From an uncultured Isosphaeraceae bacterium (GTDB taxonomy: Bacteria > Planctomycetota > Planctomycetia > Isosphaerales > Isosphaeraceae), in contig CAWAHD010000003.1 of NCBI GenBank assembly GCA_963781785.1, positions 632,093 to 696,092 on the forward strand: 64,000 nucleotides of DNA. The letters are read 5' to 3'. Both the position numbers and the translations under genes were made by a program. Under the pieces are notes generated by a model. That model worked only from the letters and a program-made list of their open reading frames with translations. It ran no database searches and was not told where the DNA came from. This document shows positions 193 through 43,758 of this stretch, one piece after another (the stretch's first letter is position 1; every line of letters begins with the position of its first letter).

Positions 193-221
193 GATCTCAC
201 CTCCTGGGAAGAGAAAATGGG

Positions 222-1575
222 TCAAATCCGCTGCGCCTCGGCGGAAGCCAGCAGTCGTACCAGAGCATGCCGGGCCGTTCCCGGCCGTTCGAGAGGGACC
301 TTGGGGCTATCGGCACCGAGCAAGAGCTGCGCGAAGAAAGACGGGTTTCCTCCCTGGCCGTGGCGGGCGGCCAGCGCGATCGGGTCGAACGACGTTCCCA
401 GGCCGGCCGAATCGACACCCACCAGGGCCGCGGCGAAGTTCGCTCGCCCGAGGGCCGAGCGGGTGGTGATCCAGTTGCGCCCGCCGGTCCACCCGCCGAC
501 ATTGGGCGGATAGAACAGGTCCTGGCCGAGCCGGCCGCACCAGTCGGCCAGGACCGGAGTGCTCGGCGCCGGGTCGAGCATCTCGAGGGCCCGCACCGCA
601 CCCAGGATAAAATCGATCGGGCTGGCGATCCGCCGGCCGAGATTGGCGGCGCCAAAGAACAGGCGCGACCGCAGCACCAAGCTGACGCCCCAGCCGATGT
701 CCAGGTCGTGGGCCCGCAATCCAACGGCCAGCGCGCCAATCGCCCCCTCGTCGACCGCCCCCTCTCCGAAGAACTCATGACAGAGCCGCCAGGCCAGGCG
801 GCCTGACGTGGCGGGATGATCGAGGATGCAGCGCGGCCAGCCCGTCCGCGTCGAACGCACGCTTCGTGCCGAGGATGGTCTTGGTGGCTGCGTCGTGTCG
901 CACTGGAACGAATCGCGCCTGGTCGTGCACGAGCTTCCAGCCGGTCAGGGCGCGGGCGGCCTCCTTGACGTCGTCCTCGGAATAATGGCCGATCCCCAGC
1001 GTGAACAGCTCCAGCAGCTCGCGGGCCAGGTTCTCGTTGGGGTGCCGCTTGCTGTTCTCCGGCGCGTCGAGCCAGATCAGAAGCGCCGGGTCGCGGAGCA
1101 TCGCGTGCAGCAGCCGGCCGAACGGGGCGCAACACAGCGAGCGCAGGGTCTCGTTCTGCCGCCGCATCAGCGCCAGGTCGTTGACCTTCAAGTTGCTGGT
1201 GGCGAAGTGGTCATGCCACATGAGGGTCAGGCGCTCGGTCAGCACGTCCGGCCCGAAGAGCATGCGGTAGACCCACCAGCCCTTCAAGCGGTTGGGCTCG
1301 GGTACCGCGAGGGCTCGCTCGGCCAGGCGGTCGGCGAAGGCGGCGAAGCCATCGGGAACGCCGCAGGATCGGGACTTCCCTTCCAGCACCCGGTTGATCG
1401 ACGCCTCGGAGCCATCCTTGAGGTCGCGCTGGATCTCGTCCCAGGTGGCGGCGAAGCCGGCCCGGCGGTGCAGGTGCACAACGCGCCGCAGGTCCCAGGG
1501 CGCCTGGGAATCCGGTACGTAAGGCGCCCACGGGCCGCCCGGGTCCGTGTCTGACGAACGTGGTCGCATCGGCAA
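222..1575 (-). CDS. DUF1800 domain protein, split into two frames (775..1575 N-terminal part, 222..860 C-terminal part); frameshift between ~777 and 860
   Basis: Conserved DUF1800 motifs (WHDHFATS, NENLARELLELFTLG, PPNVGGW); summed length ~478 aa fits the family; partner of DUF1501. Confidence 0.75.
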
Positions 1576-1590
1576 GCTCCTGAAACCGGC

Positions 1591-2394
1591 CTATTCGGCC
1601 GTCACCTTCACGTCGCCCAGGTCACGAACCTCGCCGGGCTCTGCGGTCAGGTTCTTCAGGACCTCGCCGGTGCGATAGCGAACGAACGGCCGCTTGCTGT
1701 CCCTCACGCTGATGATTGTCTTGACGTCCCTCTTCAGACCATCCACCTGAAAACGGCCGTCGGAACCGGCCATGACGGTTTCGTTGTCCGGCCAGAGACC
1801 ATCCGGGCCCCCGGGCAGATTCGCGTGGTCGGCCTCAAAAGTCGTGGCCTCAAGCTGGGCACTCGCGAGAGGCTGGCCGTCTTCATCGACCAGGCGGCCC
1901 TTGACCGAGCCCGCGCGCTCCATGCGCACGACCAGCGGTGCGTCACTTTTGATGTCGTCGTCTTTGAGGACGACCGAGCCCACCAGGTGAAGATCCTGGT
2001 GTGCGAAGACGACCAGACGAGTCAGACCAGGCATCAGCCCATGGACTTCAAACGCGTCGGCCTCGAGAGTCCGGACATCTCCCCACCGGCTGGCCTGGCC
2101 ATAAACGCGCGCTCCGGTCACCGGCTTGCCGGTTGGACCGATCAACCTTCCTTTACGCGTCTCACCGCGGGTCAACTCCAGCTCCACCGCGAGCGACTCG
2201 GTGCCGGGCGGGATGTTGATGAACTGGTAGGTATGCGAGCCGCTGAGCGCAGTGGTGAAGGTCTCGCCATCACCAAAACCGCCGATGCCTTTGCCCCGGT
2301 CCGCGGTCTTCAGGTGGGCGCGGACGTACGGGTCGTCCTTGGTGCTGACGGCTGCAATTGCGGCGATCATCGCGTGGCCGGGCGGGATCGTCAC
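1591..2394 (-). CDS. C-terminal segment of locus-A giant ECF sigma/extension protein (more CarboxypepD_reg-like repeats); GTG start overlaps the upstream TGA (GTGA), or is joined by a 1-nt indel at 2423-2447
   Basis: Repeat motifs VKGRLVDEDGQPLASAQL and VTGARVYG; this frame opens directly after a TAA in the C4G4 palindrome region. Confidence 0.55.
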   Translation of the reverse strand: MTIPPGHAMIAAIAAVSTKDDPYVRAHLKTADRGKGIGGFGDGETFTTALSGSHTYQFINIPPGTESLAVELELTRGETRKGRLIGPTGKPVTGARVYGQASRWGDVRTLEADAFEVHGLMPGLTRLVVFAHQDLHLVGSVVLKDDDIKSDAPLVVRMERAGSVKGRLVDEDGQPLASAQLEATTFEADHANLPGGPDGLWPDNETVMAGSDGRFQVDGLKRDVKTIISVRDSKRPFVRYRTGEVLKNLTAEPGEVRDLGDVKVTAE

Positions 2395-4010
2395 ACCGAA
2401 CCTCGCGCCGGCCAGCCTGGAGAACCCCGGGGCGCTTCCCCGGGGTTCACGTTATCAGGCGTCTTGAAATAGCTGATATATGCTGGTGGGACTGCACGTC
2501 CCGTCGCCGAGTCAACCAGCCGCCCGGTCACGATTACCCCCGGGCACAGCTCGATTGTCTGCTCGATCGGCTTGAGCCCTTCGGTGTCATCGACAATGAC
2601 GGTGTGGCGGAGGAACCGGTCGATTCCCGTCCTCGGGTTAAAGCTCAGTTGGTAGAACTCCCCCTTGGGCACACCATTGAGGCGGAAGCGGCCGGCGTCA
2701 TCGGTCCGGACGGTGACGATGGTATGGGTCGCCGCGTCGGCGACCCGCACGAGGGCGCCTGCGACCGGTTTGCCGGACCCCTTCAAACGGACAACGCCCA
2801 TGAATGGCTTGGACGGGCTGGCGATGTAGTCGAAGGTCGCGCCGACGAGCTGCACCCGCTGGGGGTAGACGCCGATGAACGCGCCATCCCGGCCGAACAT
2901 CAGCGACTCGGACTGCGTAGCCGGCCGCGCCTTGGGCGGGGTCTTCGGGGCGCGGGCGATCACGTCGAGCGTGCCGTCTGCCACGCCGCCGCCGTGGAAG
3001 TTCAATCGGGCGACGCGGTCGCGGCCGATGCCTTGGATTTCGAAGCCACCGTCGGCGCCGGTGATCCACGCGTCCGGGCCGCCTGTCCAGACTGGTGCGA
3101 TCTCCGCCTCCCGGGGTGGGCCCAGGAGGTCGAGCCCATACCAGCTTGTGATCCGACGTTCCGCCATCTGTCCCGAGGCCAGCATCGCGTCCAGGTCGAC
3201 CCCGTCTTTGAGGGTGCCGATCACTCGGAGCCGGACGACGACCCCCGCAACGGGCCGGCCTTGCGAATCCAGGACACGCCCGCGGACCGGCACGTCGTCG
3301 CGGACCAGGTGCAAGATCGCCTCGCCTCCCTTCGCGAGGTCGCCAGCCTCCACCCAGGCCGGTGCGAATCCGCGAGCGGCGGCCACGATCTGGGACTTGT
3401 GCCAGCCGGGCCCGCCATCGGACAGGACGCCGCCCGAAGTCTTGTCTAACTCGAACTGGAACCGCCCGTCGGCATCAGTTACCGCCGAAGGCGCCTTTTG
3501 CGGCCCGGCCGTCGGGTCCATCGGGGGCTCAACCGGTTCGGCGTAGGGGCGCACGTGGACTTGAGCGCCGGCGACCGGCTTGCCATCGGGGTCGAGCACC
3601 CGGCCGCGCACGGGGAACATGCCTTCCGTGTCGGCTGAGGCCGGTTTCGGCTGCGGCAGAGCGGTATTGGCCGCGGGGCGGCCGGCCGGTGCCGCGGGCG
3701 CGGGCGTCCCCTTCGGCGCCGTCTGTCCGAGCGAAACGAGGGCGGCCGACGCCCCCCAGCCGATGAGGCCGGCGGCCAGCAGCGTGGCTGATGCCAATTT
3801 GATCTTTTGGAGCAACATGACCTTGAACACCTCCTGAGCCAACTGCTGAGCCGCCGCCGAGACCCCAAGGGCGGTGATTGTGGAATTCAGTGTCGCGACC
3901 GCGGCACGAACGGTCGCTTCGCTCCAGGCCGGCGGCACGGCGGCGCGCGCTTCGCGCAGGAATACTGCGCCGAGAGCTGCGCTGTCGGGTGCCAGCCCGC
4001 ACCGGGCCAA
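2391..4010 (-). CDS. Extracytoplasmic extension of locus-A ECF sigma: TM/signal-like helix (MLLQKIKLASATLLAAGLIGWGASAALVSLG) followed by at least 4 CarboxypepD_reg-like Ig-fold repeats; probably the same polypeptide as the sigma domain upstream
   Basis: Repeats of type VRGRVLDPDGKPVAGAQVHV; the N-terminal frame (AIERRLARCGLAPDSAALGAVFL) continues the sigma region-4 helix consensus. Confidence 0.7.
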   Translation of the reverse strand: MARCGLAPDSAALGAVFLREARAAVPPAWSEATVRAAVATLNSTITALGVSAAAQQLAQEVFKVMLLQKIKLASATLLAAGLIGWGASAALVSLGQTAPKGTPAPAAPAGRPAANTALPQPKPASADTEGMFPVRGRVLDPDGKPVAGAQVHVRPYAEPVEPPMDPTAGPQKAPSAVTDADGRFQFELDKTSGGVLSDGGPGWHKSQIVAAARGFAPAWVEAGDLAKGGEAILHLVRDDVPVRGRVLDSQGRPVAGVVVRLRVIGTLKDGVDLDAMLASGQMAERRITSWYGLDLLGPPREAEIAPVWTGGPDAWITGADGGFEIQGIGRDRVARLNFHGGGVADGTLDVIARAPKTPPKARPATQSESLMFGRDGAFIGVYPQRVQLVGATFDYIASPSKPFMGVVRLKGSGKPVAGALVRVADAATHTIVTVRTDDAGRFRLNGVPKGEFYQLSFNPRTGIDRFLRHTVIVDDTEGLKPIEQTIELCPGVIVTGRLVDSATGRAVPPAYISYFKTPDNVNPGEAPRGSPGWPARGSV

Positions 4011-4597
4011 TCGGCGCTCGATCGCGCTCGCCCCTCGCCCAGCCGCTGGTGGATCGTCCGTTCGCTCCAGTGCAATTGCCGGGCGGCCTCCGCCTGGGTC
4101 ATGCCTTCCAGGTCGCAGTGGACGACCGCGAGACGGTACTTCTCGGGCAGCCGCGCGATCTCCTCATGAAGCGCGGGCAGCAAATCATCCGAGGCTGGCG
4201 GCCCGTTTGCACCCGTCGCGACAGCCATCTCTCCCACCTGCCTTTCGAGCGTGCGCCGCCGGGCGAGGGCGTTATTGGCCTGGATCGCGACGCGATGCGC
4301 GACCTGGTGCAGCCAACCCGCCAAGGTGTCTCGTCCCCGGATTGTGCCGCCCTTCTTGACCAGGACCAGAAAGGTTGCCTGGAAGGCGTCCTCGGCATCG
4401 TGCGGGTCGCGCAGGATCCCCCGGCAGACGCTCAGGACCATGGGTCCGTGCCGCCCCACCAGCGCTTCGAAGGCGCCGCCGTCACCCCGGCTGAGGAAAC
4501 GCTCCAGGAGCTGGGCGTCGGAGAGCCCAGCGGCCACGCCCTCGGCGAACAAGCGGTCGATCTGTCGCAGGGCAGCGCCCAGTGTCTCGCCGGCCAT
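3887..4597 (-). CDS. ECF-type RNA polymerase sigma factor module (sigma-70 regions 2 and 4) of locus A; ORF tail after ~aa 190 is out of frame and the true protein likely continues in the 2391..4010 frame
   Basis: RHGPMVLSVCRGILRDPHDAEDAFQATFLVL (region 2) and LEGMTQAEAARQLHWSERTIHQRL (region 4.2); paralog of 11184..11789. Confidence 0.85.
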   Translation of the reverse strand: MAGETLGAALRQIDRLFAEGVAAGLSDAQLLERFLSRGDGGAFEALVGRHGPMVLSVCRGILRDPHDAEDAFQATFLVLVKKGGTIRGRDTLAGWLHQVAHRVAIQANNALARRRTLERQVGEMAVATGANGPPASDDLLPALHEEIARLPEKYRLAVVHCDLEGMTQAEAARQLHWSERTIHQRLGEGRARSSADWPGAGWHPTAQLSAQYSCAKRAPPCRRPGAKRPFVPRSRH

Positions 4598-4753
4598 GTT
4601 TCGGAGTCCCCTCGTCCTCGTGCTCTATTCGTTAATGAGAGCCCGGCGCGGGCCGTCCCGCAAATTTTCTTGAGGATTTTCGCCGGTTCCGGTCGGCTGA
4701 TTCCTCGCCGCGATCGTCGGTAGGCCGAGCCGGATTGCTGCCGATCTTGGCGA

Positions 4754-5146
4754 GTGTTACGATGGCTTTTGGCTTCGGTTCAACGCCCGACGATTCCATA
4801 TCTTATGGCACACAAGACAGTCACGGCAAAACCGGAGCCGGTAGGTACAGCGATGGTTGAGCAAATCGCTGGCCTCGATGCCAAGAGCATTTCGCCCCAG
4901 ACGGCGCGCCATTTCCTGGATCTCTTGTTCTCCCGGTCACACCAGCAGCAGGTCGATGCACTGTCGCAGAAGGCGCAGGCGGGATCACTCACGCCCGCGG
5001 AGCGCGCCAAACTGGACGAGTTCATTCGCGTGGCTGACCTGCTCGCGATCCTGCAATCACGCGCACGCCAAGCCCTGAAGCGCGGGGGCCTCCTCTTGAT
5101 CATCGATGGTGGCGATGGTGCAGAATTGGGGAGATCGGCGAGATGA
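4754..5146 (+). CDS. hypothetical protein (likely start MAHKTV or MVEQIAGL)
   Basis: ORF only; no recognisable domain. Confidence 0.3.
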   Translation: MLRWLLASVQRPTIPYLMAHKTVTAKPEPVGTAMVEQIAGLDAKSISPQTARHFLDLLFSRSHQQQVDALSQKAQAGSLTPAERAKLDEFIRVADLLAILQSRARQALKRGGLLLIIDGGDGAELGRSAR

Positions 5147-5203
5147 ACAGGCTCACTCGGGTCGGCGCGAGGCGGAAAACCAGTAATCCTCTGGCCGGGA
5201 GTC

Positions 5204-5407
5204 TTGTTATCGGCAGGGGGCGTCGTAGCCACCGTGCTGATCGGCTACTCGCTCATGGTGGCGGGCGGCGGGGGTTCGTTCGCCGTCCTTCTCGCATTGA
5301 TGAGCGCGATCATTTGCCTGGGACTGATTGCGTTCGATGTCCGAATCAAGCTTTCGCTGCCAGCGGATTCCCTGCCGCGGATGGACGAACGCGGGGAGAA
5401 TCGGTGA
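5204..5407 (+). CDS. small hypothetical membrane protein (two hydrophobic helices)
   Basis: Hydrophobic profile LSAGGVVATVLIGYSLMVAGGG...AVLLALMSAIICLGLIAF. Confidence 0.2.
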   Translation: MLSAGGVVATVLIGYSLMVAGGGGSFAVLLALMSAIICLGLIAFDVRIKLSLPADSLPRMDERGENR

Positions 5408-5733
5408 GCTGCCGGATTTCTTGACGTCTCTCCGTTGGCAATGGTCGGCCGAACGCGGGGTGAGCGGGCAGGCAGCCGGCACGGCGTTGATCTCGGTGCT
5501 GCCCAGCTTGGGCGCACGAGGTGTTAGCGAAAGCCCTGAAGACGAGAGCACTCGATGCCATCCGCGAGTTGATCGGCCACAACATCTGCCCGGGCCGGAT
5601 CGGTGCAGGGCCGATCGAATTCCGGAGCAAAGGATGCACACAGCCAGAAAATGACTTCGACGAAGTCCGGTCCGGCTCTCGTCGAAGCGACCCGGAAGCC
5701 GCGTGACTGCGCCTGGGAATCAGGGGCAGAGCT

Positions 5734-6261
5734 TCAAGAGACCAAGAGCAATTCACCTTTCAGTCCGTCGTAGACGAACTGGCAGTGCGCGAGCATGTCC
5801 CGACCGATCAGCGCCAGAACGCCTGGGTCGGCGGGAACGACAGCCGCGGATTCAATTCCGACCCAGGAACCAGTCACTGGCGAGACTATGGCCCCGCCGA
5901 ACGCCACTCGTGGCATCAGATGACCGCGCTCGGGATGTGATGCACCGGCTAGGAGGGCGAGACTTGCTTCACGAAAAGAGGCCCGATTCCGAACCGCGAG
6001 TAACCTGCGTCGAGAGCCTCGTCTCGAGACTCGTAGAAGCCGTCGACCTGGTCGCCCTTGATCAGTCCGAAACTCGCGAGACGATGTGAGGGACTCCAGA
6101 ACAGTGGTGATGATCGGGACCACCGGTTTCAGAACGGATTTATCCTGGCTGGGACGCGAATGCGACTGAGAAAACCCATCCATGGTCATGTCGTCGATCA
6201 TTCGCTGCCGCAAGCGAGTCATGGTAAGCTCGTGCGCTGAGGTCGAGGGGTGGGAAACCAC
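5734..6261 (-). CDS. hypothetical protein; C-terminal half weakly resembles a retropepsin-like (clan AA) fold with a degenerate DTGAS motif (LLAGAS); possible gene remnant
   Basis: ORF plus weak motif similarity only. Confidence 0.2.
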   Translation of the reverse strand: MVSHPSTSAHELTMTRLRQRMIDDMTMDGFSQSHSRPSQDKSVLKPVVPIITTVLESLTSSREFRTDQGRPGRRLLRVSRRGSRRRLLAVRNRASFREASLALLAGASHPERGHLMPRVAFGGAIVSPVTGSWVGIESAAVVPADPGVLALIGRDMLAHCQFVYDGLKGELLLVS

Positions 6262-6328
6262 CCTAATGGCGGCTCAGGCAGCGGGCGACGTCGGCCCAAT
6301 TCAGGAAACCTGATCGAGGATAACTCCC

Positions 6329-6583
6329 GTGGCCGTACCCGATTTTCAATCCGTGATGTTGCCCTTCCTGGAGACTTTGCAGGATGGCAAGGAACGTACG
6401 ATGCGGGAACTGACGGAACAATTGGCGCTGGGGTTCAAGCTAACCGAGGAAGAGCGCCAGGAACATTTACCAAGCGGCCCGCAATCGTTGTTCTACAATT
6501 GCAGAGCTGATGATCGAGCACAACCTTGGCGTCACCAGGACCAAGACCTACGAACTGAAGGAAGTCTCCAACGACTTTTTTGA
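6329..6583 (+). CDS. Mrr_N-like winged-helix domain protein (N-terminal domain of Mrr type IV restriction enzymes), truncated or frameshifted remnant
   Basis: MAVPDFQSVMLPFLETLQDGKERTMRELTEQLALGFKLTEEERQEHLPSGPQ matches the Mrr_N consensus; reading frame breaks after LPSGPQSLFYN. Confidence 0.4.
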   Translation: MAVPDFQSVMLPFLETLQDGKERTMRELTEQLALGFKLTEEERQEHLPSGPQSLFYNCRADDRAQPWRHQDQDLRTEGSLQRLF

Positions 6584-6690
6584 CGAAAGTGAACTCTGAT
6601 TTCAAAATGGAAGGCTTATCCAAAGCACGCGACTTCCTTCGACCGCCGGTCAGGATCTGCCACGGCCGAATACCTGGTCATGGGGCGTTT

Positions 6691-6984
6691 ATGAAGAGGA
6701 CAAAAATGAGCCTGGAAACGAGGTCGACGGACGCGAAGGGCCGTGTCAGCCTGCCCAAAGCGTTCGCCAATGCAACGGTCGTCATCGAGCAGTTGAACGA
6801 GAACGAGCTGCGCATTCGCAAAGCATGTGTGATCCCGGTGGACGAAATCCGTTTCTCGGAAGCAGCGCCGATCGTACTGTCGGATCGGGAGCGTGAGCGG
6901 TTCTTGCAAGCGCTCGATCATCCGCCCAAGCCGAACGCCGCACTCTCTCGCCTGATAGCAGGGAAGGCCAAGAAACGTGGATGA
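6691..6984 (+). CDS. type II antitoxin-like protein: AbrB/MazE-like swapped-hairpin N-terminus plus DUF1778-like C-terminus (LSDRERERFLQALDHPPKPNAAL)
   Basis: KGRVSLPKAF...ELRIRKA (AbrB-like) and the PPxPN motif of DUF1778 antitoxins; no intact toxin ORF downstream. Confidence 0.45.
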   Translation: MKRTKMSLETRSTDAKGRVSLPKAFANATVVIEQLNENELRIRKACVIPVDEIRFSEAAPIVLSDRERERFLQALDHPPKPNAALSRLIAGKAKKRG

Positions 6985-7434
6985 GTGGCGGATCGAGCAA
7001 CTCGACCACGGGCATATGCGGCACAGCTACGGCTGCGGCAAGCCCTCGGGCAACTCGGATTCTTGCCTTTGACGGACGACGAGATGCGGCTGTTCCTTCC
7101 CATGAGCACCATCCGATCGGCCGCGCAGCCATAGCAAGTAAGGAACGAGGAGATGAAGGCTTCGACGGGCAAAACAATACGACGTTCTGGCCCGGAGAAG
7201 GCTGTTGGCCGTTCCCGAAACGAGCCTTCGGCCGGGACGGTCAGGCGTTGATCTCGGTACGAAACGGCGGGTATCTTCCGAGAATACGCTGCGAACTCCG
7301 CAGCGGCGCCTCCTTGCCAAGCGGCGCCACAGCGGTGACCGTGCGTCCGGCGTGCGGCACATCGCTCGCGAATTGGCCGATGCCTTGCGCCGGTTCCACG
7401 GTCGTTATCGAGCCGTTGAGCGAGGGCAGTCCCA

Positions 7435-7925
7435 TGCGAACCAACACATCCTTCCAGCGGCTTGAGCCGCACTCTTCGCCGATGCTCGCGCTCATTTTCT
7501 TTCTGGTCTTCCCTCCGCTCTGTCGTGCTCACGATGGAATTGCCAAACGCGCGGCTCAGCCACAAGCAAAACCCGCGCTGAAGGTCGGGATTCAGGTCGT
7601 TCTGAAGACGTCCGACACTCCGCTCGACGACAACGGCAAGGCCATCTCGATCAAGGACAATCTCAGGACCTGGATCGAGAAGATCGATGGCGAGCGGGTC
7701 TTGCTGGTTGTAAGCGACGTCATGAAGGCGGGCTGGGTCCGGAGCGAGCAGGTTCTCCCCCGCGACGAGTCCCTCGCTCGGATGCTGGCAACCTGTGTTG
7801 ACGCGTCGATCCGCGCCGGCAAACGGTCCGTCGCGGAGGCGACCGCAGAACCTCAATCGGCTGGCTCGAGCGCGCCAACGAATAGCCATCCCAATACACT
7901 TGGACGCGCGATCGAATTCTGTTGA
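7435..7925 (+). CDS. hypothetical secreted protein (signal peptide MLALIFFLVFPPLCRA)
   Basis: Inner ATG of ORF 6981..7925; signal-peptide-like N-terminus. Confidence 0.3.
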
Positions 7926-7986
7926 CGATCATCATTTCACTTCCTACCAGGGGTAGAGAAGCAGTGCTCCGTGGGCCTGAGGCCGG

Positions 7987-8241
7987 TCATTCCCCGACGA
8001 ATTGCCTCCGAACCTGCTCATGAGTTTGGAACTGACCGGCATCGATTCGACCGCGGATCTCACGACAATGGGCGCGGAACTTGGGACTCCTCTCAACGAG
8101 GAAATCGATGAGGTCGTCATCGAGGGGGATCACGGCGTAACGCCCCTGACCCTGGGATTCCACTACGATGCCATCGGTGCCTGCGGCCTTGAGGATCTCG
8201 CCGATCGGTGTATTCGGGTCGTCGACAGGCTGTACACTCAT
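7987..8241 (-). CDS. Phd/YefM family antitoxin
   Basis: LVERSPKFRAHCREIRGRIDAGQ aligns to the YefM C-terminus [22 protein letters not shown]; N-terminal half aligns to the YefM core; ATGA overlap with the upstream toxin stop. Confidence 0.65.
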   Translation of the reverse strand: MSVQPVDDPNTPIGEILKAAGTDGIVVESQGQGRYAVIPLDDDLIDFLVERSPKFRAHCREIRGRIDAGQFQTHEQVRRQFVGE

Positions 8242-8522
8242 GGCGATCCTCCGAGGTAATCAATGGAATCCTGCTTGGTGAGGATCTCGACGATGACGAC
8301 GGCTTCTTCTTGGATATCGTAGAACACGCAGAATTCGCCGACACGAAGGCGGTACTGGGTTGGCGAGGGCTCACGGAGCCGCTTGATTCGCGACTTGCTT
8401 GTCAATGTCGGGTTCACACTCAGTATCTGCTCAATTTGATCGAGGATGGTGCTTCGGTCGAAGCCTTTCAACTTCTTGAGTCGCTCGACAGCCTCATTTG
8501 AGTATCGTATCGCGAAGCCCAT
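8238..8522 (-). CDS. RelE/ParE family toxin
   Basis: YRLRVGEFCVFYDIQEEAVVIVEILTKQD is the RelE/ParE C-terminal signature; 94 aa. Confidence 0.75.
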   Translation of the reverse strand: MGFAIRYSNEAVERLKKLKGFDRSTILDQIEQILSVNPTLTSKSRIKRLREPSPTQYRLRVGEFCVFYDIQEEAVVIVEILTKQDSIDYLGGSP

Positions 8523-9186
8523 TCCGCAACTCCCGGCCCACTCTCATTCTAACAGCCTCGTCGAGTCCGACATGCAATTATTTCCGTCCTCGGGCCTGCG
8601 CCTTGGTTGGTGCCCGGCGCCATCGCGATACTCCCCATCCGTCACCCGCCGCGCACCCCCGCTACCCGAGTCGGTCTTGAAATGAGGCGTTCACACCGCT
8701 TCGGATCTGTAAGATCTCCCCGGGGCTTTCTTCCCGACTCGCTGCCTGCTCGTTGCGTAACAAAAACGCTCGGTCGCGAAGCTCGCCCCAGGATGCCTCG
8801 CCCCGGGGCGCCGGGGACCGTGGCAGTCAGAAGTGCGCGGCTTAGCGGGAACCCAGTCGTCGACGAACGGCCGTACGCGGCCACCGGGAGCCAGTCCGCT
8901 GGGATGGGTAACAGATGTCCATCACTATGGATGCGACCGGGGCCGTCTTAGCGTCGCCTAACTTTCTTCTGGGAAATGAGGCATCTCCCATGTTGAGAGC
9001 CCCTTGCGCCCCTACTGATCGAAACCTACCGTACGGTAGCATGGGGAGTTCCGCGCACCACGTTGCATAATTGAAGTATCAAACAATTCGTGCGACGGCC
9101 AGGTCGAGGCCGTCTCTTTCTGTTGCGCACATCCGGTCGGTCCAACCGACCTGTCAATGCACCCCGATCCAGGCGACTGTGTGCTC

Positions 9187-9307
9187 GTAGGACAGGCTTT
9201 CCAGCCTGACGGCCGAGCGTAGGTCAGGCTTTCCAGCCTGACGGCCCAACGCAGGTCAGGCTTTCCAGCCTGACGGCCCAACGTCGGTCAGGCTTTCCAG
9301 CCTGACG
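9187..9307. repeat. Tandem array (4 units, 32-bp period) of a palindromic repeat with core GTAGGTCAGGCTTTCCAGCCTGAC (8-bp stem GTCAGGCT/AGCCTGAC, loop TTCC)
   Basis: Read directly from sequence; same family as 60902..61190. Confidence 0.85.
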
Positions 9308-9402
9308 CACTGCATCCTTTGTCCCCCGCTCCCGCTCGGGATCAACTCATGTACGACTCCACTGCATGAACACGGAAACTTAACAACGAGGAACATCCGG
9401 CA

Positions 9403-11183
9403 ATGGCGACATCGCAACGCCGCTTAGATGCGAATCGACGCAACTGCCTCAAGTCGACCGGGGCCAGGACAGTGAACGGCCGTTCCGTATCACGTCTCAA
9501 CGGCCTGAAACATGGCCTGACGGCCAAGACCGTGGTGATTCCCAGCGAGGATCCCGCGGAGTATCACCAGCTCCTGGCGGACGTTTCCGGTACGCTTGTG
9601 CCGAGAAACCGGATTGAAACGATTTTGACGGCTCAAATCGCGCACGCATCGTGGATGCACGACCGCGTCGTGCGTGCCCAAACCGCGCGGCTCACGTCGG
9701 CGATCGAAGGGGCCGCTGATGTTGCACTCGAGGAGGTCTACAACCTGGGCGCCCGGCTGTTCCACGATCGAAGAGTTCCCACCGCGATCTCGGGCGCGAT
9801 CCCCTGGAATCATGTCGGGCCGCGGACCTCCCACTCGGGAGCCGCGATTGACCCGGACGATCCCGCGCGGATCGTGCGGAAGCTCTCCACCACCGTTCAC
9901 GGCTGCGATTGGATGCTGAAAGAGTGGTCGGCTCTGAGGGCGCTCCTTGAGCAAGGAGGGGCCTGGCAGGGCAACCATAAATTCATGGCAGTGAGACTAC
10001 TGGGTCACCAGCCCATCGACTGTTGGAAATCCAGGGAGATTTCGACCCTCTACGTCGCGGCCTGGTCGCTCAATTCCTTGCGCGGCAACGCGTACTCCGA
10101 GATCCGTAGCGACCTGGGGGCGACCGAGTACAAGCACTACACGCGGCGGGTGCGGGGCACATGGACAGATATGATCAATGCGATGGACCACGAGAACGCG
10201 CGGCGAGTGCTCATCGGGATCGTCGATCGGGCGATCGAACGAGTGCAGGCGCACCGCGCTTTAGCCCAGGAGCGGGCCGCGCGCGACGAGGCACGCCGGG
10301 CCGACTGTCTGTCGTTCGACGACAGCCACGAGGGAGAGCTCCAGAGGCGGTACGAAACGAGCAATCATCGTAAGTTCACCCGGTCCATCAATGAATTCTT
10401 TAAGTTTCGCCGCGCCGCCGAGGAAAATGGGTGCGAGGAGTTCCTGGAAGCCGGCGAGATTGGCGATCAAGGCGACACGTCAGCCGCTCCAGAGGTCTGC
10501 GATCCGGAGCCTGACAATTGCCACAATCCCACCCTACCGCAAACTGCGGATTTACAACCCACGGCGGACGACTCGAACAATCCGCAAACGGATGACGATC
10601 GACCGGCAACGGACAACCCCTCCAGTTCCATCGATCCGCAAAGTGAGAACCGAGAATCGGCGACGGACAACATCTCAATCGCTCCTCGATTTTTGCGAAC
10701 CGAAGCCAATGAGCCTCACCAAGCCGCACCAGACACCCCCGACCAATGCGCAGTCGATATCAAACCACACGATCGCGGCGCGGTCGATTGCGAAATCGAA
10801 CGGAATGACACGAACACGGCTGGAACTGAAAAGGACCCGCGCCGACGGGTTTCATCCGCCACAAAGCTACTCGTCTCCCTGATCTTGGTGTTCGCCGCGG
10901 CTCTCTGGGCGGCCGTCGCTGGCCGCGCGGCTGCCAGCCATGAACGCGTTGCTCTCGAGTCACGCGATGGCCCGGCCATCCCACGCCGGGCGAAGCCCGC
11001 GCGCGTCGCTGCCGATGAGCCACAACACCCAGCCGCAGCTCAGGTTCAGGAGCATGAAGCAAAAAGGAACAGCACACCCGGAACGGCGGAATCCAGAAAA
11101 TTCTCATGCGGGTTAGAGGCAGACCGTGCAGTAGTGATAATGAGGGGCACGGTTGTGGCCGGCGGTCTTTGGGGGCTTGATTC
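9403..11183 (+). CDS. hypothetical protein: ~350-aa N-terminal domain of unknown function, an acidic Asp/Pro/Thr-rich disordered linker (aa ~380-470), one TM helix (LLVSLILVFAAALWAAVAG); 3' end uncertain because the ORF frame runs into the sigma-B gene
   Basis: ATG 9403 with an AGGA RBS; composition and hydrophobicity; no recognised domain. Confidence 0.45.
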
Positions 11184-11789
11184 ATGGCGAGCGGACAGCA
11201 AGGGGCATTTCTCCGAGAAATCCACCAGTTGTTCGGCGCGGGCACCGTCGTCGGGCTTGGCGACGAGGACCTGGTCGGCCAATTCGCCGCGCGGCGGGAC
11301 GAGGCTGCATTCGCGGCACTGGTCACGCGTCACGGGCCGATGGTGTTGAGCGTCTGTCGCCGGCGGCTGCGCGACCCGCGCGATGCGGAGGATGCCTTCC
11401 AGGCGACCTTCCTGGTCTTGATCCGCAAAGCCGGCTCGATCCAGAAGCCGCATCTGCTGGGGCCCTGGCTGTATGGAGTCGCCGATCGGGTGGCGCGGCG
11501 AGCGCAGAAAATCGCTGCCCGCAGAGTCGAGCGCGACCGGATCGCGGTCAATACGGAGCCAGCCGACGTGGAAGATACTGGGCGGGCCGGTCGATCCGCC
11601 GAGCAGAATGAGTTGCGAGCCGTCCTCGATCAGGAGATCAATCGACTGCCGGAAACGTTGCGGCTACCGGTCGTGCTTTGCCACGTCGAGGGTCTGAGCC
11701 AGCCGGAAGCGGCTGTACGGCTCCGGACAACGCCAGACGGTGTCCGCGGCCGGTTGGCTCGGCGCGCGAAACGCTTCGATCGAGGCTGA
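11184..11789 (+). CDS. ECF-type RNA polymerase sigma factor module of locus B; true protein likely continues in the -1 frame into 11678..14659
   Basis: RHGPMVLSVCRRRLRDPRDAEDAFQATFLVL and LSQPEAAVRLRTTPDGVRGRLAR; paralog of 3887..4597. Confidence 0.85.
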   Translation: MASGQQGAFLREIHQLFGAGTVVGLGDEDLVGQFAARRDEAAFAALVTRHGPMVLSVCRRRLRDPRDAEDAFQATFLVLIRKAGSIQKPHLLGPWLYGVADRVARRAQKIAARRVERDRIAVNTEPADVEDTGRAGRSAEQNELRAVLDQEINRLPETLRLPVVLCHVEGLSQPEAAVRLRTTPDGVRGRLARRAKRFDRG

Positions 11790-14659
11790 CCCGACGCGGA
11801 TTCGCCCTGACCGGCGGAGTCTTGACCCTCGACCTCGCGGCCGATACTGCCTGGTCGGCACCGTCGGCTCGCTTGACCGAGGCGACTCTGGGGATGGGAC
11901 GCGCCGGAGCCGCGCCGCCCTATGCGGTGGCATCCCTTGCGGCAGGAGTCGTTCGAGCCATGTCTTTCTTCAGTTTGAAGGTGATCGCCGGGGTCGGCGC
12001 CGCGCTGGCGGTGGCCATCGCTGCCGCGATCGCGACCGGGATCGGCACAGTGAGAACCAGCGACGGGGCCACGGCCGTGGTGAACCGGTCCGATCAGCCC
12101 ACAGTTAAACCGCAAGACACCTCCCAGCCTGGAAAAGCCGAGCGACCTCCGGCAGTTGCCGCGCTCCCCGGAAACCAGCCGCTCGAGATCACGATCGAAG
12201 CGCGCGACCTCTTTACCGACAAGCCCATCCCGGACGTGCAGCTTATGCTCAACGTGCCGTCAACCACGCTCTCGAACCCGAAAGCGACCACCGACAAGTC
12301 GGGCACCGCCCGTTTCTCTCTTGCCGGCGCGGCGGGTATCAAGTGGATGAAAGCTTTTGCCACCCGCGAGGGTTTCGTTCCTCTTGGCATCATGTGGTCT
12401 TACAACGACCCGGGCTCGGTCGCGCCGCCCGGCCACTGGCTCTTTCAGATGGAAAAAGCAACGACCATCACCGGCCGCGTCCTCGATCAGGACAACAATC
12501 CGCTGGCGGGCGCCACCGTCTTCATCAGTGCGAGCAAGCGCTATCCCAGGTCTGAACAATGGGTTGCCGTCGGGTATGAGCAGGCTTCGACGGACGCGCG
12601 GGGCCGCTGGTCTTACTCGGGCGTACCCGAGCGGCCGGATGCCGTCAGTCTGGCGGCTCATCACCCGCTTTGCCTGTCCGAACTTGCGTCGTTCCAGGAG
12701 AAGGAATTCACGCCTCTTGCCGCACTTCGAGATGGCTCTGCGGTTCTCCGCCTCGAGCGCGGCACGCGCATCGAGGGGACAGTCGTCGGGCCCGATCATC
12801 GGCCGGTGCCCAACGCCGAAATCTTCTACGGAGAAGGGCGGAGGTTCGGCAACTCCGTACCCTCCATGAAAGCCGACGCTCGCGGCCGGTTCACGGTCGG
12901 GATCAAGCCCGGCACGGTGACGAGCCTCACGGCTCAATGTGCCGGATTTGGTCCAGCGGGTCAGGCCATCCGGGTCGGCACGGAAACCCAACAGCTCACT
13001 CTCACGCTTCACCCAGCCCAGAAGATCGGTGGTCGGGTCGTCGATCGCGCCGGCAAGCCGGTCGCCAAAGCAAGCCTCACCGTGGGATGGTCGCCGGTCA
13101 GGCGCGAGACCTCGGGGCGAGGGTCCGAAGCAATCTCGCGCGAGTTGACGACCGACGCGGACGGCCGATTCGCGTGGAACGACGCGCCCGGCGATGGGGT
13201 TCACGCGGAAGTTTATGCCGCTGGCTACTTGGGGCGGGCCGTACGGTTGTCGATCGGGCTCCAGAACGAAATCGTCCTGACAGCCGCAACCAAGATCAAA
13301 GGCACCGTATTCGACAAAGAGACCGGCCAGATCGTCCCGCTGTTCACGCTCACGTACAGCGCCGTCTGGAATCCCGGCGAGGGCCTGATCTCGCAGCGGA
13401 TCTCGGGGATGGACCGGGATGCCCGGAAAGCGCCGGGATCATTCGAGTATACCTTTGACCGCGCGGCGGAACAGCTCGTCGTGCGCGTCGAGAGCGACAA
13501 TCATCTGCCGGCGGAATCGGAGCCGTTTGTGCCCGATGGCTCGACGCGCGAGCTCACATTCCGCCTGACCAGGGCTCGTCCGGTCGCCGGCAGGATCATC
13601 AATGCGGAGGAAACTCCCGCGCGTGACGTGATCGTTTACCTGGTTCCCGCCGGAGAGCAGCTTAATATCGAGAATGGCGACGTTCGTGAGTCGTACCGGC
13701 GGGGTTCGATCCAGGGAAAAACCGCGGTGGATGGCGGCTTTTCGCTTCCCCCCCAGCGCAACGACTACCAGCTCGTGGCCTTGAGCGACGCCGGCATTGT
13801 CACGGCTCGTCGTCGCGATCTCCATGGCAATGACTCTCTCCAGCTCCGGCCATGGGCGCGCGTGGCCGGCAGTGTGAAGATCGATGGCAAGCCGGCCGCC
13901 GGCGTCTGGCTGTCCGATAGCCCCGAGGACCTGGAACCGTGGGTCGAGGGCGCGCCCCGCGTAAATCACCGGCTCTACCAGGAGACGGACTCAGCCGGAC
14001 GATTCGAGTTCACCCGGGTCATGCCTGGGCGCCACTCGCTGGGCCACTCCGTGCCGAACGGGGCTCCCAATCGTCGGTGGTTCATCAGGATGGCCACATT
14101 CGACGCCGAGAGCGGCCAGACGATCAACCTGAATATCGGCAGCGGCGGGCGCTCCGTGACCGGACGGCTCGTGCTGCCGACATCGACCGGGTGGATGGTC
14201 AGGCGAGCCTCGATCGAGCCGAGCGGCGCGGGGGACCCGTTAAGAGTGCGCGGTGTGCAGGTGTTCGAAGACGGCCGTTTCCGCGCTGAGGATCTGGAGC
14301 CTGGCGAATACAGGCTATTGATCAAGATCCACGAGCCGCCGCCGGCAGACGAATGTGGCTGGGGCCGGCTGATCGCTGGGTTTTCCCACATGTTCAAGGT
14401 CCCTGGCGTCGTGAAGGGAGGTCTCTTCGACCTTGGCAGCCTGGAACCGGTCGAGATCGGAGGCCAGCCCTTGAAGATCGGCGACGACGCCCCGTCTTTC
14501 ACGGTGAAAACACTGGACGGCAGGGACCTCAGTCTGGCCGAGCTCAAGGGTAAGCTGGTCCTGCTCGACTTCTGGGCGACCTGGTGCGCCCCTGCGTCGC
14601 CGAGCTGTCAAACCTCAAGGCCGTCCACGAGGCGCTGGGCACGACCCCCCAGTTCGTGA
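11678..14659 (+). CDS. Extracytoplasmic extension of locus-B ECF sigma: linker (ARETLRSRLTRRGFALTGGVLTL), TM helix (FFSLKVIAGVGAALAVAIAAAIATGIG), ~8 CarboxypepD_reg-like Ig repeats, start of C-terminal TlpA-like thioredoxin domain (LVLLDFWATWCAP)
   Basis: Repeat motifs ITGRVLDQDNNPLAGATVFI, IGGRVVDRAGKPVAKASLTV and similar; thioredoxin WCxPC motif interrupted by a frameshift at ~14590. Confidence 0.75.
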   Translation: MPRRGSEPAGSGCTAPDNARRCPRPVGSARETLRSRLTRRGFALTGGVLTLDLAADTAWSAPSARLTEATLGMGRAGAAPPYAVASLAAGVVRAMSFFSLKVIAGVGAALAVAIAAAIATGIGTVRTSDGATAVVNRSDQPTVKPQDTSQPGKAERPPAVAALPGNQPLEITIEARDLFTDKPIPDVQLMLNVPSTTLSNPKATTDKSGTARFSLAGAAGIKWMKAFATREGFVPLGIMWSYNDPGSVAPPGHWLFQMEKATTITGRVLDQDNNPLAGATVFISASKRYPRSEQWVAVGYEQASTDARGRWSYSGVPERPDAVSLAAHHPLCLSELASFQEKEFTPLAALRDGSAVLRLERGTRIEGTVVGPDHRPVPNAEIFYGEGRRFGNSVPSMKADARGRFTVGIKPGTVTSLTAQCAGFGPAGQAIRVGTETQQLTLTLHPAQKIGGRVVDRAGKPVAKASLTVGWSPVRRETSGRGSEAISRELTTDADGRFAWNDAPGDGVHAEVYAAGYLGRAVRLSIGLQNEIVLTAATKIKGTVFDKETGQIVPLFTLTYSAVWNPGEGLISQRISGMDRDARKAPGSFEYTFDRAAEQLVVRVESDNHLPAESEPFVPDGSTRELTFRLTRARPVAGRIINAEETPARDVIVYLVPAGEQLNIENGDVRESYRRGSIQGKTAVDGGFSLPPQRNDYQLVALSDAGIVTARRRDLHGNDSLQLRPWARVAGSVKIDGKPAAGVWLSDSPEDLEPWVEGAPRVNHRLYQETDSAGRFEFTRVMPGRHSLGHSVPNGAPNRRWFIRMATFDAESGQTINLNIGSGGRSVTGRLVLPTSTGWMVRRASIEPSGAGDPLRVRGVQVFEDGRFRAEDLEPGEYRLLIKIHEPPPADECGWGRLIAGFSHMFKVPGVVKGGLFDLGSLEPVEIGGQPLKIGDDAPSFTVKTLDGRDLSLAELKGKLVLLDFWATWCAPASPSCQTSRPSTRRWARPPSS

Positions 14660-14922
14660 TGGTTGCCTTGAGCGTCGATGAGAAGCCGGACGACGTTCGA
14701 AGGTTCGTGAAGGCCGAGAAGCTCGCGTGGCTGCAAGGCTATCTCGGCCCGGACTCGCCCGTGGCGGCCGCTTACGGCGCCACCGCCATCCCGGCGACCT
14801 TCTTGATCGGTCCCGACGGTCGCGTCCTCGCCCGTGATCTCAAGGGTGAACAGACGCGAAGGGCGATCGAGAAGGCACTCGGGCCGTTGAAACCGTCCCC
14901 TGCCGGCTCGCCGCGGAAATGA
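14584..14922 (+). CDS. Remainder of the TlpA/ResA-like thioredoxin domain (C-terminal piece of the locus-B protein after a 1-nt frameshift inside the CxxC codons)
   Basis: CVAELSNLKAVHEALG...AIPATFLIGPDGRVLARDL is the classic redoxin/TlpA fold continuation; correcting one C in the C4 run restores WCAPCVAEL. Confidence 0.7.
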   Translation: MRPCVAELSNLKAVHEALGTTPQFVMVALSVDEKPDDVRRFVKAEKLAWLQGYLGPDSPVAAAYGATAIPATFLIGPDGRVLARDLKGEQTRRAIEKALGPLKPSPAGSPRK

Positions 14923-15236: not shown

Positions 15237-15314
15237 ATAAAAAAGGCCGATGCCGGTCCATCGTGCCCGGTCAAGCTCGATCGGTTGAGAAGAAAACCCT
15301 CGGAGACAGGACGG

Positions 15315-15696: not shown

Positions 15697-15735
15697 GAAA
15701 ATCGATTGATTCAGAAGACCAGGAGACGCGCAACC

Positions 15736-43402: not shown

Positions 43403-43758
43403 ATGCTGAGGGCGCTCCGCACGCCCAAGCCTGCGCCCGAATCGCCGACGACAATCGAGCCAAGGACATCCTGCTGCTCGACCTTCGGCAAACGACTCCC
43501 CTGGTTGATTTCTTCGTGATTGCGACTACAGTCTCCCGTCGGCAAAGCCGCGCCACCGCCAGCGAGATCGACCAGGCGATGAAGAGACGGGGAGAGCTGA
43601 AGCTGGGGCTCGAGGGATCTGAGGAAGGCCGCTGGACGTTAATCGATTACGGCGACTTTGTCGTCCACATTTTTTCGCCCGAAGGCAGGGCCTTTTACGC
43701 CCTGGAAGAAATCTGGGGCGACGCACCTCAGCTCGACTGGCAAGAGACTCCAAGCTGA
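43403..43758 (+). CDS. rsfS: ribosome silencing factor RsfS (Iojap); N-terminal start region frameshifted (~43430-43440)
   Basis: ARIADDNRAKDILLLDLRQTTPLVDFFVIATTVSRRQSRATASEI...WTLIDYGDFVVHIF. Confidence 0.6.

Follow-up and report, generated by a model that had tools for sequence, protein, structure and literature searches.

The two loci and their products

The window, i.e. the whole 64,000-nt stretch of DNA that was analysed, contains two divergently oriented loci, A (1591..4597, minus strand) and B (11184..14922, plus strand). Their coordinates and content were reported correctly in a preliminary description of this DNA, and agree with the ORFs and Pfam domains found here. As assembled, each locus consists of three overlapping ORFs, resulting from two 1-nt deletions that change the frame by −1. 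In locus A, ORF 1 (4597..3887) contains Sigma70_r2 (E 7e-12) and Sigma70_r4_2 (E 2e-13), whereas ORFs 2 and 3 (4010..2391 and 2394..1591) contain CarboxypepD_reg. In locus B, ORF 1 (11184..11789) contains Sigma70_r2 and Sigma70_r4_2, ORF 2 (11678..14659) contains CarboxypepD_reg followed by positions 1-41 of the AhpC-TSA profile, and ORF 3 (14584..14922) contains positions 40-121 of that profile. Inserting one base at each of four sites (plus strand, after 11762 and after 14592; minus strand, between 4023/4022 and between 2442/2441) yields single polypeptides of 1002 aa (A, of a type without thioredoxin) and 1246 aa (B, with a thioredoxin domain at the C terminus). Of the 1060 to 1270 aa previously estimated, B is within the range and A falls below it. 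Both proteins display the same order of domains: sigma2-sigma4, a conserved juxtamembrane linker of ∼55-60 aa, one transmembrane (TM) helix, a Pro-rich spacer, and six to eight β-sandwiches. The earlier proposal of one polypeptide per locus, composed of a sigma module, a single TM helix and a β-sandwich ectodomain, is supported by intact single-ORF orthologues. We regard the identity and architecture of both proteins as close to certain, and consider it highly probable that each locus is one gene for a one-component ECF sigma factor that is anchored in the membrane and belongs to the planctomycete (Isosphaerales-type) family with long C-terminal extensions.

The sigma2-sigma4 modules span aa 1-200 in A (3999..4597, minus strand) and aa 1-205 in B (11184..11797, plus strand), as assessed by Pfam and alignment. 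Sigma70_r2 and Sigma70_r4_2 are the only sigma regions detected by Pfam in both loci, as in ECF (group 4) factors. The PDB matches of the sigma module are SigH, RpoE, and SigW, and P0001, a close orthologue of B, scores 71.7 bits against the NCBIfam sigma70-ECF model TIGR02937 (cutoff 42.9). Two cysteines are conserved, one in sigma2 and one in sigma4 (in A, within SVCRG and VVHCDLEG, respectively). A and B both have them, as do all 11 further cassette proteins aligned, and those of B (C58 and C166) are kept in at least 90% of 31 homologues. The sigma module is followed by the linker and TM helix, delineated by hydropathy and cassette alignment (A: linker aa 201-262 and TM aa 263-291, 3726..3998, minus strand; B: linker aa 206-258 and TM aa 259-290, 11798..12052, plus strand). 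In each protein this is the sole hydrophobic segment (aa ∼263-291 in A, ∼259-290 in B). In an AlphaFold2 (AF2) model, the linker and TM of B are helical, with low confidence in this part. Neither linker has an HxxxCxxC or other His/Cys motif, or a Pfam match.

The extensions, ∼800 aa in A and 1040 aa in B, are dominated by arrays of β-sandwich domains. The array in A (aa 329-1002; 1594..3614, minus strand) comprises ∼6 CarboxypepD_reg-type repeats (E 1e-23 and 3e-8), with repeat motifs at aa 330, 438, 599, 815, and 899. In B (aa 336-1095; 12188..14467, plus strand) there are ∼8 CarboxypepD_reg/prealbumin-like domains (E 1e-36), and the AF2 model of the extension is all-β from ORF residue 166 to ∼930, with pLDDT mostly >90 and a pTM of 0.69. 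A Foldseek search with this ectodomain model returned nothing beyond generic Ig/MG-array matches (TM-score ≤0.11). The last domain of B (aa 1096-1246; 14468..14922, plus strand) is a TlpA/ResA-like thioredoxin, as previously proposed, with matches to AhpC-TSA, Redoxin, and Thioredoxin_8 that are divided between two ORFs, and matches in the PDB to 3fkf (E 7e-17) and to ResA and TlpA structures (E 1e-17 to 1e-11). Its WCAPC active site, restored by a 1-nt correction, is present in orthologues, and both cysteines (C1135 and C1138) are kept in at least 90% of the aligned sequences. From hydropathy and domain logic, we infer that the sigma part is cytoplasmic and that the array and thioredoxin are extracytoplasmic. 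The pointers to the location of the thioredoxin are the TM helix after the sigma module, the signal peptide of a standalone homologue, and the position of the same ectodomain behind the BlaR1 membrane domain in other proteins.

The two genes are separated by 6.6 kb (4598..11183) of lower GC content (0.56-0.62), which harbours ORFs for a ParE toxin (8238..8522, minus strand) and for a TacA/MazE-like antitoxin (6580..6984, plus strand), along with others that match no family. This is consistent with the accessory nature attributed to it previously. In another context, L083, the members of a divergent sigma pair are just ∼240 bp apart. Upstream of the genes, the classical ECF promoter motif (AAC-N15-19-CGT) matched once, which is chance level, and scans for the sigma-70 consensus and for terminators gave nothing useful. 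An element GAAAA..TGCG..TAnnnT recurs, of which the pattern search caught a part only.

Origin of the frame breaks

All four junctions, two in each locus, are −1 frame changes. In A1 (4022..4023, minus strand), a base is absent in GAGCGCG^ATCG, within the last helix of sigma4, where orthologues read AEGRARLKRRLARRGL in frame. In A2 (2441..2442, minus strand), a base is absent in the run AACCCCGGGG; upon correction the sequence is PDNVNPRGSAPGFSRLAG, and orthologues read PDNVGAGHAALGFSRLAD, of equal length. Both corrected junctions agree residue by residue with intact A orthologues, with a length difference of zero, and locus A as assembled runs collinear with P0104, spread over three frames. 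In B1 (11761..11762, plus strand), again in the last helix of sigma4, a GGG is reduced to GG in GCTCGG^GCGCGC, where P0001 and P0004 read GRLARARETLRSRLTRRGFAL. In B2 (14592..14593, plus strand), a base is absent in TGCGCCCC^TGC, within the CxxC motif. When locus B was aligned at the DNA level with the intact orthologue in L001 (78% identity), there were only triplet gaps except for two 1-nt gaps in the window, at 11761 and 14593, which fall exactly at B1 and B2.

More than 200 intact single-ORF homologues, with identities of up to 74-77%, read through all four junctions, including proteins from Aquisphaera giovannonii and Singulisphaera genomes that are complete or derive from isolates. Orthologues of the B type include P0001 (77% identical), P0004 (73%), P0013, and P0015, the latter a single 1234-aa ORF in the complete genome of A. 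giovannonii (CP042997). Those of the A type (P0267 to P0386) comprise >100 intact homologues of ∼1000 aa with 45-74% identity and 100% coverage, among which P0267 (1004 aa) is 74% identical, and Singulisphaera sp. GP187 has an A-type protein of 1003 aa. An A-like paralogue in a related MAG is broken at different positions, and in that protein the passage from sigma4 to the TM helix is in frame. Within the window, a single Pfam domain is divided over two frames in rpsM, in rpsD, and in a DUF1800 gene. The first two, both essential, are broken <2 kb from locus B, and the errors lie in (GC)n repeats or homopolymer runs. Because homologues read through and because rpsM, rpsD, and the DUF1800 gene are likewise frameshifted, the breaks are attributed to assembly and not to biology. 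Judging from these sequences, the four breaks are single-base deletions in an assembly that looks error-prone, resembling a long-read assembly, and their corrections are those indicated by the orthologues. A GC3 frame plot (at ∼63% GC) had too weak a signal for mapping frameshifts across the window. Since the match between L001, the closest B orthologue, and the window is limited to the gene itself, its flanks could not be used for counting frameshifts either.

These data also bear on three other explanations of the broken frames. It is very unlikely that the frameshifts are real and that both genes are decaying pseudogenes. Four disruptions in two non-essential, multi-copy paralogues would fit decay, and loss of either gene would be tolerable because planctomycetes carry several copies (a mean of 5.3 ECF57 copies per genome; PMC7826278). 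This is at odds with the disruption of the essential rpsM and rpsD nearby and with the presence of every error in a GC-repeat or homopolymer run. Furthermore, the genes have no stop codons beyond the 1-nt gaps and are under purifying selection, with dN/dS versus the orthologue of 0.15 for sigma, 0.36 for the array, and 0.22 for the thioredoxin. Highly improbable are ordinary two- or three-gene operons, in which a free ECF sigma factor would be followed by an overlapping, separate gene for a membrane anti-sigma factor or sensor. Indeed, the sigma ORFs as assembled have their own stops (3887 and 11789), the following ORFs start at TTG within the sigma4 coding region, and the source annotation has locus B as a 945-aa protein that lacks sigma (P0002). 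However, the frame change bisects the last sigma4 helix and, in B, also the CxxC of one thioredoxin domain, the out-of-frame tails have no homologues, the DNA alignment has exactly two 1-nt gaps, and no anti-sigma domain is found. Orthologues, in which the preliminary description had suggested looking for separate sigma and extension genes, have single ORFs. Programmed −1 ribosomal frameshifting at the end of sigma4, which would yield a short soluble and a long tethered sigma factor, is barely conceivable: the two paralogues do shift within four codons of a homologous position in the last sigma4 helix, but both sites lack a slippery heptamer, close orthologues are in frame there, the remaining two breaks cannot be programmed, and the shared position of A1 and B1 is explained by the GCGCGC runs that Arg-Ala-Arg codons form, as broken in rpsM. 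The single-gene reading of both loci carries a warning, which is that GC-repeat and homopolymer indels in uncorrected error-prone assemblies make such fusions mimic sigma/anti-sigma operons.

A shared cassette with diverse ectodomains

ECF sigma factors number in the dozens in planctomycetes, and many of them carry huge extensions; to our knowledge, none of those with extensions has been studied experimentally. A and B fit this published class (PMC7671368, PMC7826278, PMC8999054), in which the C-terminal extensions were acquired through insertion of duplicated sigma modules, an origin described as "fortuitous insertion" (PMC7671368). A search of the literature returned no relevant work on sigma-thioredoxin fusions. 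Among the best 120 matches for each query, 49 proteins have the B-type and >100 the A-type architecture, mostly annotated as "sigma-70 family sigma factor". The combination of domains in B, which the preliminary description did not recognise as characterised, is not rare or new to databases; the tethered-sigma family is uncharacterised, large and already catalogued.

The two sigma modules had been called near-identical and paralogous. In fact, the N-terminal sigma-linker-TM cassettes of A and B share just 42% identity over 273 aa, and the 35-residue sigma motif on which the comparison had drawn is conserved family-wide. A and B do share the cassette, but they are members of different, old subfamilies and their relationship is less recent than was implied. 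The identical type of cassette is joined elsewhere to WD40, LRR+Redoxin+S8, or Redoxin-only ectodomains, and the fused architecture, together with a specific juxtamembrane motif, is kept down to ∼30% identity across these differing ectodomains. No match to FecR or another anti-sigma Pfam family was obtained, whether in the ORFs or in intact orthologues. Across five contexts (the window, L001, L082, L083, and L084) there is no conserved partner or anti-sigma gene among Pfam-recognisable families, and no protease gene linked to the loci was detected. The proposed "sigma/anti-sigma-like" architecture therefore holds as a one-component tethered sigma factor, and as regards an anti-sigma part it is only an analogy.

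The ectodomain has a distribution of its own. Its 150 best representatives include 12 fused to sigma, 33 fused to Peptidase_M56 (BlaR1-type), and 77 in which array and thioredoxin occur without either; the standalone form carries a signal peptide. In L002, the M56 fusion is encoded beside a Penicillinase_R repressor gene. WCxxC is retained in 56/69 thioredoxin-bearing homologues. These findings identify the ectodomain as a pre-existing module of exported proteins, which is found also alone or on BlaR1-type M56 transducers.

Judged by the features described for ECF groups, the family is most like ECF57 (formerly ECF01-Gob type). Common features are planctomycete origin, a sigma2-sigma4 module with a very long extension behind it, a conserved cysteine in each of sigma2 and sigma4 (PMC8999054), no neighbouring anti-sigma gene, and several copies per genome (PMC8999054, PMC7826278). 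Moreover, P0091 and other WD40-bearing proteins share the N-terminal cassette with ∼43% identity. On the other hand, WD40-like repeats are reported to be prevalent, though not universal, in ECF57, whereas the window proteins have no WD40 but a CarboxypepD_reg array (plus thioredoxin in B). IutY of Pseudomonas putida (ECF243) similarly combines a cytoplasmic ECF sigma factor, one TM helix and a periplasmic domain in one polypeptide, but it belongs to another sigma group has a FecR-type anti-sigma/periplasmic domain, and works with a TonB-dependent receptor. Here there is no FecR and no receptor gene, and the ectodomain is ∼950 aa. Actinobacterial ECF48/52/53 (e.g. SCO4117) likewise unite an ECF sigma factor, TM helices, and an extracytoplasmic domain, and proteolytic activation has been proposed for them (PMC8999054). 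They are from another phylum, however, and have a zinc-finger (ZAS-like) anti-sigma and a carbohydrate-binding domain, whereas the window genes have no ZAS motif. BlaR1/MecR1 (M56) with BlaI is comparable in that an outside sensor governs transcription via proteolysis, and relatives (L002, P0096) bear the homologous array and thioredoxin on M56, with the Penicillinase_R gene adjacent. There, the output is a metalloprotease with a separate repressor instead of a fused sigma factor, and M56 is absent from the window genes. Finally, as to the ResA/TlpA/DsbE extracytoplasmic thiol-disulfide oxidoreductases, the C-terminal 150 aa of B match the structures of ResA and TlpA and keep WCxPC, but this domain sits at the far end of a 1246-aa sigma factor, lacks a cytochrome-maturation gene context, and scores far under the orthology cutoffs of ResA (NF002854, 71 bits versus 170) and TlpA (NF047696, 55 versus 230).

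Possible modes of activation

By analogy, we tentatively propose proteolytic release of the sigma module on an envelope or redox cue, to which we give slightly less than an even chance. The membrane tether would confine sigma or keep it inactive. When the ectodomain senses a change, site-1 trimming and site-2 (RseP-type) intramembrane cleavage would follow, and the latter would free the sigma module for binding to RNA polymerase. In B, the redox state or substrate engagement of the CxxC domain would serve as the signal; in A, a ligand of the β-sandwich array would do so. The experimental precedent for such a scheme is the sigma/anti-sigma fusion IutY, which is activated by sequential proteolysis and released by Prc and RseP (PMC5411451, PMC8999054). 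The sigma2 and sigma4 cysteines may constitute a second, cytoplasmic redox or metal switch.

It is somewhat unlikely that sigma is never released from the single polypeptide. Sigma might act while tethered, in a ToxR/CadC-like manner, or its fusion might be a fortuitous capture in which the ectodomain is enzymatic and the two halves do not signal to each other. The predominance of standalone forms in the ectodomain family (77/150 best representatives) and the "fortuitous insertion" origin proposed for planctomycete extensions (PMC7671368) agree with this, as do the lack of a detectable protease or anti-sigma element and the finding of Tuwongella ECF sigma factors in detergent-soluble, not Tris-soluble, fractions (PMC8567305). 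Indeed, the ectodomain may be primarily an enzyme and not a sensor. On the other hand, conservation of the fusion and of the juxtamembrane motif over such divergence, independent attachment of the ectodomain to another signalling platform (BlaR1 with BlaI), and dN/dS <1 in all parts argue against this view, and a holoenzyme held at the membrane would be mechanistically awkward, though not impossible. A bolder version of the proteolytic release model is that array and thioredoxin form a dedicated envelope sensor of thiol-redox state or substrate load, wired independently to tethered ECF sigma factors and to BlaR1/BlaI, in which oxidation or trapping of the CxxC would directly trigger sigma release. 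We consider this improbable; if true, it would define a new class of extracytoplasmic redox-to-transcription one-component systems.

The two genes of the window add no new category of sigma factor. The question on which they bear is how a membrane-anchored sigma factor gets switched on. The sigma-linker-TM cassette serves as an output module that is portable, and among its commonest partners is a conserved ectodomain with a CxxC thioredoxin that also supplies BlaR1-type transducers. Intact members of the family exist in cultured strains (A. giovannonii, Singulisphaera). The conserved CxxC offers a concrete, mutable handle on the mechanism of activation.

Frame changes and their correction

Each of the two divergent sigma loci is read as three overlapping ORFs: 4597..3887, 4010..2391 and 2394..1591 on the minus strand for locus A, and 11184..11789, 11678..14659 and 14584..14922 on the plus strand for locus B. 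At both loci, the first ORF matches Sigma70_r2 and Sigma70_r4_2 in Pfam, and the later ORFs match CarboxypepD_reg. At locus B, the AhpC-TSA/Redoxin profile is divided between the second ORF, whose end matches positions 1-41, and the third, which matches positions 40-121; one thioredoxin domain is therefore interrupted by a frame change within its CxxC motif. As assessed by three-frame translation, the frame change is -1 at all four junctions. At both sigma junctions, the last sigma4 helix is carried on in the other frame (GRLAR followed by ARETLRSRLTRRGFAL in B, GEGRAR followed by IERRLARCGL in A). With one base inserted at each site, namely 11761/2 and 14592/3 in B and 4022/3 and 2441/2 in A, the predicted products are 1246 and 1002 aa long, respectively.

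These one-base corrections are justified on four independent grounds, i.e. intact homologues, a clean DNA alignment, other broken genes and error-type sites. Searching with corrected B retrieved many homologues of ~1200-1250 aa that unite sigma, CarboxypepD_reg and Redoxin domains in a single ORF, among them P0001 and P0004, displaying 77 and 73% identity to the query. Intact B-type homologues include P0013, carried by a 4.4-Mb contig, and P0015 (1234 aa), annotated as ECF sigma factor SigE in the complete genome of Aquisphaera giovannonii. Such homologues have GRLARARETLRSRLTRRGFAL and FWATWCAPCVAEL, identical to the corrected B protein. Among the matches listed for corrected A, more than 100 proteins of ~1000 aa show 45-74% identity with 100% coverage, including proteins from Singulisphaera sp. 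GP187 and Isosphaeraceae/Isosphaerales MAGs; the A-type homologues agree with corrected A at both junctions, without insertion or deletion. At the DNA level, locus B and the intact orthologue on contig L001 are 78% identical; every gap in their alignment is a triplet, apart from a 1-nt gap in the window at each of 11761 and 14593.

Breaks of this kind in the window are not confined to the sigma loci. By Pfam, rpsM (S13; 15300-15700, plus strand) matches profile positions 1-44 and 81-128 in different frames, rpsD (S4; 16390-17020, plus strand) matches positions 1-67 before the frame change and 68-95, with the S4 domain, after it, and a DUF1800 gene (200-1590, minus strand) matches positions 1-232 in ORF 1575..775 and 235-362 in another frame. 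Ribosomal genes are essential and cannot be pseudogenes; the splits in rpsM and rpsD thus mark the assembly as error-prone and rich in indels. Past the rpsD frameshift, the out-of-frame reading meets no stop before the rpoA frame, creating an artefactual 558-aa ORF (16390-18066, plus strand) that joins the S4 N-terminal domain to the RNA_pol_A_bac, RNA_pol_L and alpha-CTD domains of rpoA, within an rpmJ-rpsM-rpsK-rpsD-rpoA-rplQ cluster of usual order (15.1-18.6 kb). Elsewhere, the DUF1800 gene is followed by what looks like the start of a Tat-signal DUF1501-type gene extending past the window end, and the sole tRNA in the window, tRNA-Glu(CTC) (42987-43060, plus strand), is followed by an intact argS (43758..45476).

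At loci A and B the breaks fall in (GC)n or homopolymer runs (GGCGCGCG, GAGCGCGATCG, GCCCC and AACCCCGGGG), as is typical of sequencing errors; the corresponding contexts are CGGCGCGCGGG in rpsM, near 15445, and GTTTATC in rpsD, near 16590. Both sigma genes are broken at a homologous position, at most four codons apart, because the last sigma4 helix contains Arg-Ala-Arg, whose codons make up a GCGCGC run. An A-like paralogue adjoining the B orthologue in a long-contig MAG (L083 4890-7760, minus strand) is also split into three called genes, with its frame changes in the sigma2-sigma4 linker and mid-array, and sigma4 in frame with the TM helix. That the positions differ is another sign that splits of this kind arise from assembly noise. 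Contig names in the relatives' assemblies resemble nanopore output. The preliminary description, which had proposed that each split locus encodes one tethered sigma polypeptide, is thus borne out by the four corrected -1 breaks and by orthologues in A. giovannonii, Singulisphaera sp. GP187 and MAGs, where sigma and extension form one ORF.

Architecture and class of the corrected proteins

Both proteins consist of a sigma2-sigma4 module (aa 1-200 in A, 1-205 in B), a conserved juxtamembrane linker of ~55-60 aa, a single hydrophobic helix (aa 263-291 in A, 259-290 in B), a Pro/Ala-rich spacer and an array of about six (A) or about eight (B) beta-sandwich repeats, followed in B by a thioredoxin domain. 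The Pfam matches uphold the sigma, CarboxypepD_reg and thioredoxin assignments made earlier. Modelled with AlphaFold2 on 39 aligned sequences (pTM 0.69), the B extension is all-beta between ORF residues 166 and ~930, where pLDDT is mostly >90, whereas the linker and TM helix are helical at low confidence. When the B ectodomain was compared with the PDB using Foldseek, only generic Ig/prealbumin arrays were found (SpyCEP, pilins and alpha-2-macroglobulin; TM-score ≤0.11). The last 150 aa of B match structures of ResA, TlpA and related thiol-disulfide oxidoreductases (E down to 7e-17), and score far under the NCBIfam ResA/TlpA cutoffs.

C58 (sigma2), C166 (sigma4) and both WCAPC cysteines are each kept by at least 90% of 31 aligned B-type proteins. 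Every part of locus B is under purifying selection, with dN/dS values relative to the L001 orthologue of 0.15 (sigma), 0.44 (linker and TM), 0.36 (array) and 0.22 (thioredoxin). Neither protein contains an anti-sigma domain, a FecR domain or a ZAS motif, as assessed by Pfam and cassette alignment. Placed by described features, both genes very probably work like, and belong to, the planctomycete long-extension class ECF57, which averages 5.3 copies per planctomycetal genome, conserves two cysteines and lacks an anti-sigma gene (PMC7826278, PMC8999054). They share the two cysteines, the long extension and the absence of an anti-sigma gene, whereas WD40, described as prevalent in ECF57, is absent from both extensions. 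Our literature search found no publication on a sigma extension combining CarboxypepD_reg and thioredoxin. Novelty had nevertheless been overstated, since public databases already contain hundreds of such fusions under the annotation sigma-70 family sigma factor, and the window genes are therefore further members of a known, uncharacterised kind.

A recurrent promoter-like element, GAAAA[AT]..TGCG[GC] - ~19 nt - TAnnnT (often GCAGTAAT), precedes cassette-type sigma genes in many genera, at a distance of 60-85 nt from the start codon. It is present upstream of locus B (~11095-11150, plus strand) and locus A (~4640-4700, minus strand), and of the sigma genes in L001, L082, L083, L084, L059, L012 and L033. 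A strict regex matched 5 of 27 upstream regions versus 0.2 expected. The element is distinct from the AAC..CGT motif classical for ECF sigma factors. On the plus strand, the locus A copy scores as a terminator-like hairpin (4648-4661).

Possible release of the tethered sigma factor

Because a sigma factor has to reach RNA polymerase, the tether would restrain or localise it. The best precedent for release is IutY of Pseudomonas putida, a sigma/anti-sigma fusion freed by Prc and the site-2 protease RseP (PMC5411451), and a similar release has been proposed for the actinobacterial ECF48/52/53 fusions (PMC8999054). On these grounds we tentatively favour activation by proteolysis, in which the ectodomain would be trimmed in a signal-dependent manner and intramembrane cleavage would follow. 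Activity of the sigma factor in its tethered form, or an absence of signalling between the two halves, seems to us less likely. If release is proteolytic, the likely cue in B would be the redox or substrate state of its CxxC domain, and the two sigma cysteines could form a second switch, as proposed for ECF57 (PMC8999054).

Paralogy, genomic setting and modularity

The preliminary description had called the sigma modules near-identical, but the A and B cassettes are 42% identical over 273 aa and the whole proteins 34% identical over their first ~450 aa, and the motif it quoted is conserved across the whole family. A and B are old paralogues. The accessory segment noted between them is a 6586-bp spacer (4598-11183) of lower GC (0.56-0.62). 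Its ORFs include one for a ParE toxin (8238..8522, minus strand), one for a TacA/MazE-like antitoxin (6580..6984, plus strand) and others, a large one starting at 9403 among them, that match no family. In L083, the divergent A-like paralogue is only ~240 bp from the B orthologue. Given its GC and gene content and this close pair, the spacer looks like an accessory island inserted into an older divergent pair. No conserved partner gene was found around B orthologues in the contexts examined. Upstream of the closest B orthologue, L001 carries TerB_N/TerB/TerB_C, BrxC/BrxD-like ATPase and DEAD helicase genes (2998-9546, minus strand), which look like a defence island and have no counterpart in the window.

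The cassette, which keeps both sigma cysteines and a LAxGVxRxMxxxxLK motif before the TM helix, is joined to diverse extensions: WD40 propellers (P0091, 1983 aa), LRR, Redoxin and subtilase (P0100), Redoxin only (P0110 and about 18 others), or regions without known family. Among the best 120 matches to B, 49 proteins (median 1233 aa) combine sigma, array and thioredoxin, 46 sigma and array, and 18 sigma and thioredoxin. The array-plus-thioredoxin ectodomain forms a large family of its own: a library clustered at 50% identity contains 1308 of its representatives at E ≤ 1e-30. In the best 150 of these 1308, it is fused to sigma in 12 and to a BlaR1-type Peptidase_M56 in 33; 77 (median 978 aa) have array and thioredoxin with neither sigma nor M56, and 28 are other contexts or fragments. 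One standalone example has a signal peptide. Peptidase_M56 transducers carry the array ectodomain with or without thioredoxin (L002 6097-11507, L045 6699-10253 and P0096); in L002, a Penicillinase_R (BlaI-type) repressor gene lies directly ahead of the M56 fusion (1657 aa), and one M56-plus-array protein is encoded on a Singulisphaera plasmid. This modularity fits the published model for planctomycete extensions, in which a duplicated sigma2-sigma4 module lands before another gene (PMC7671368). Recruitment of the same ectodomain by two membrane chassis that control transcription argues that it serves as an input module.
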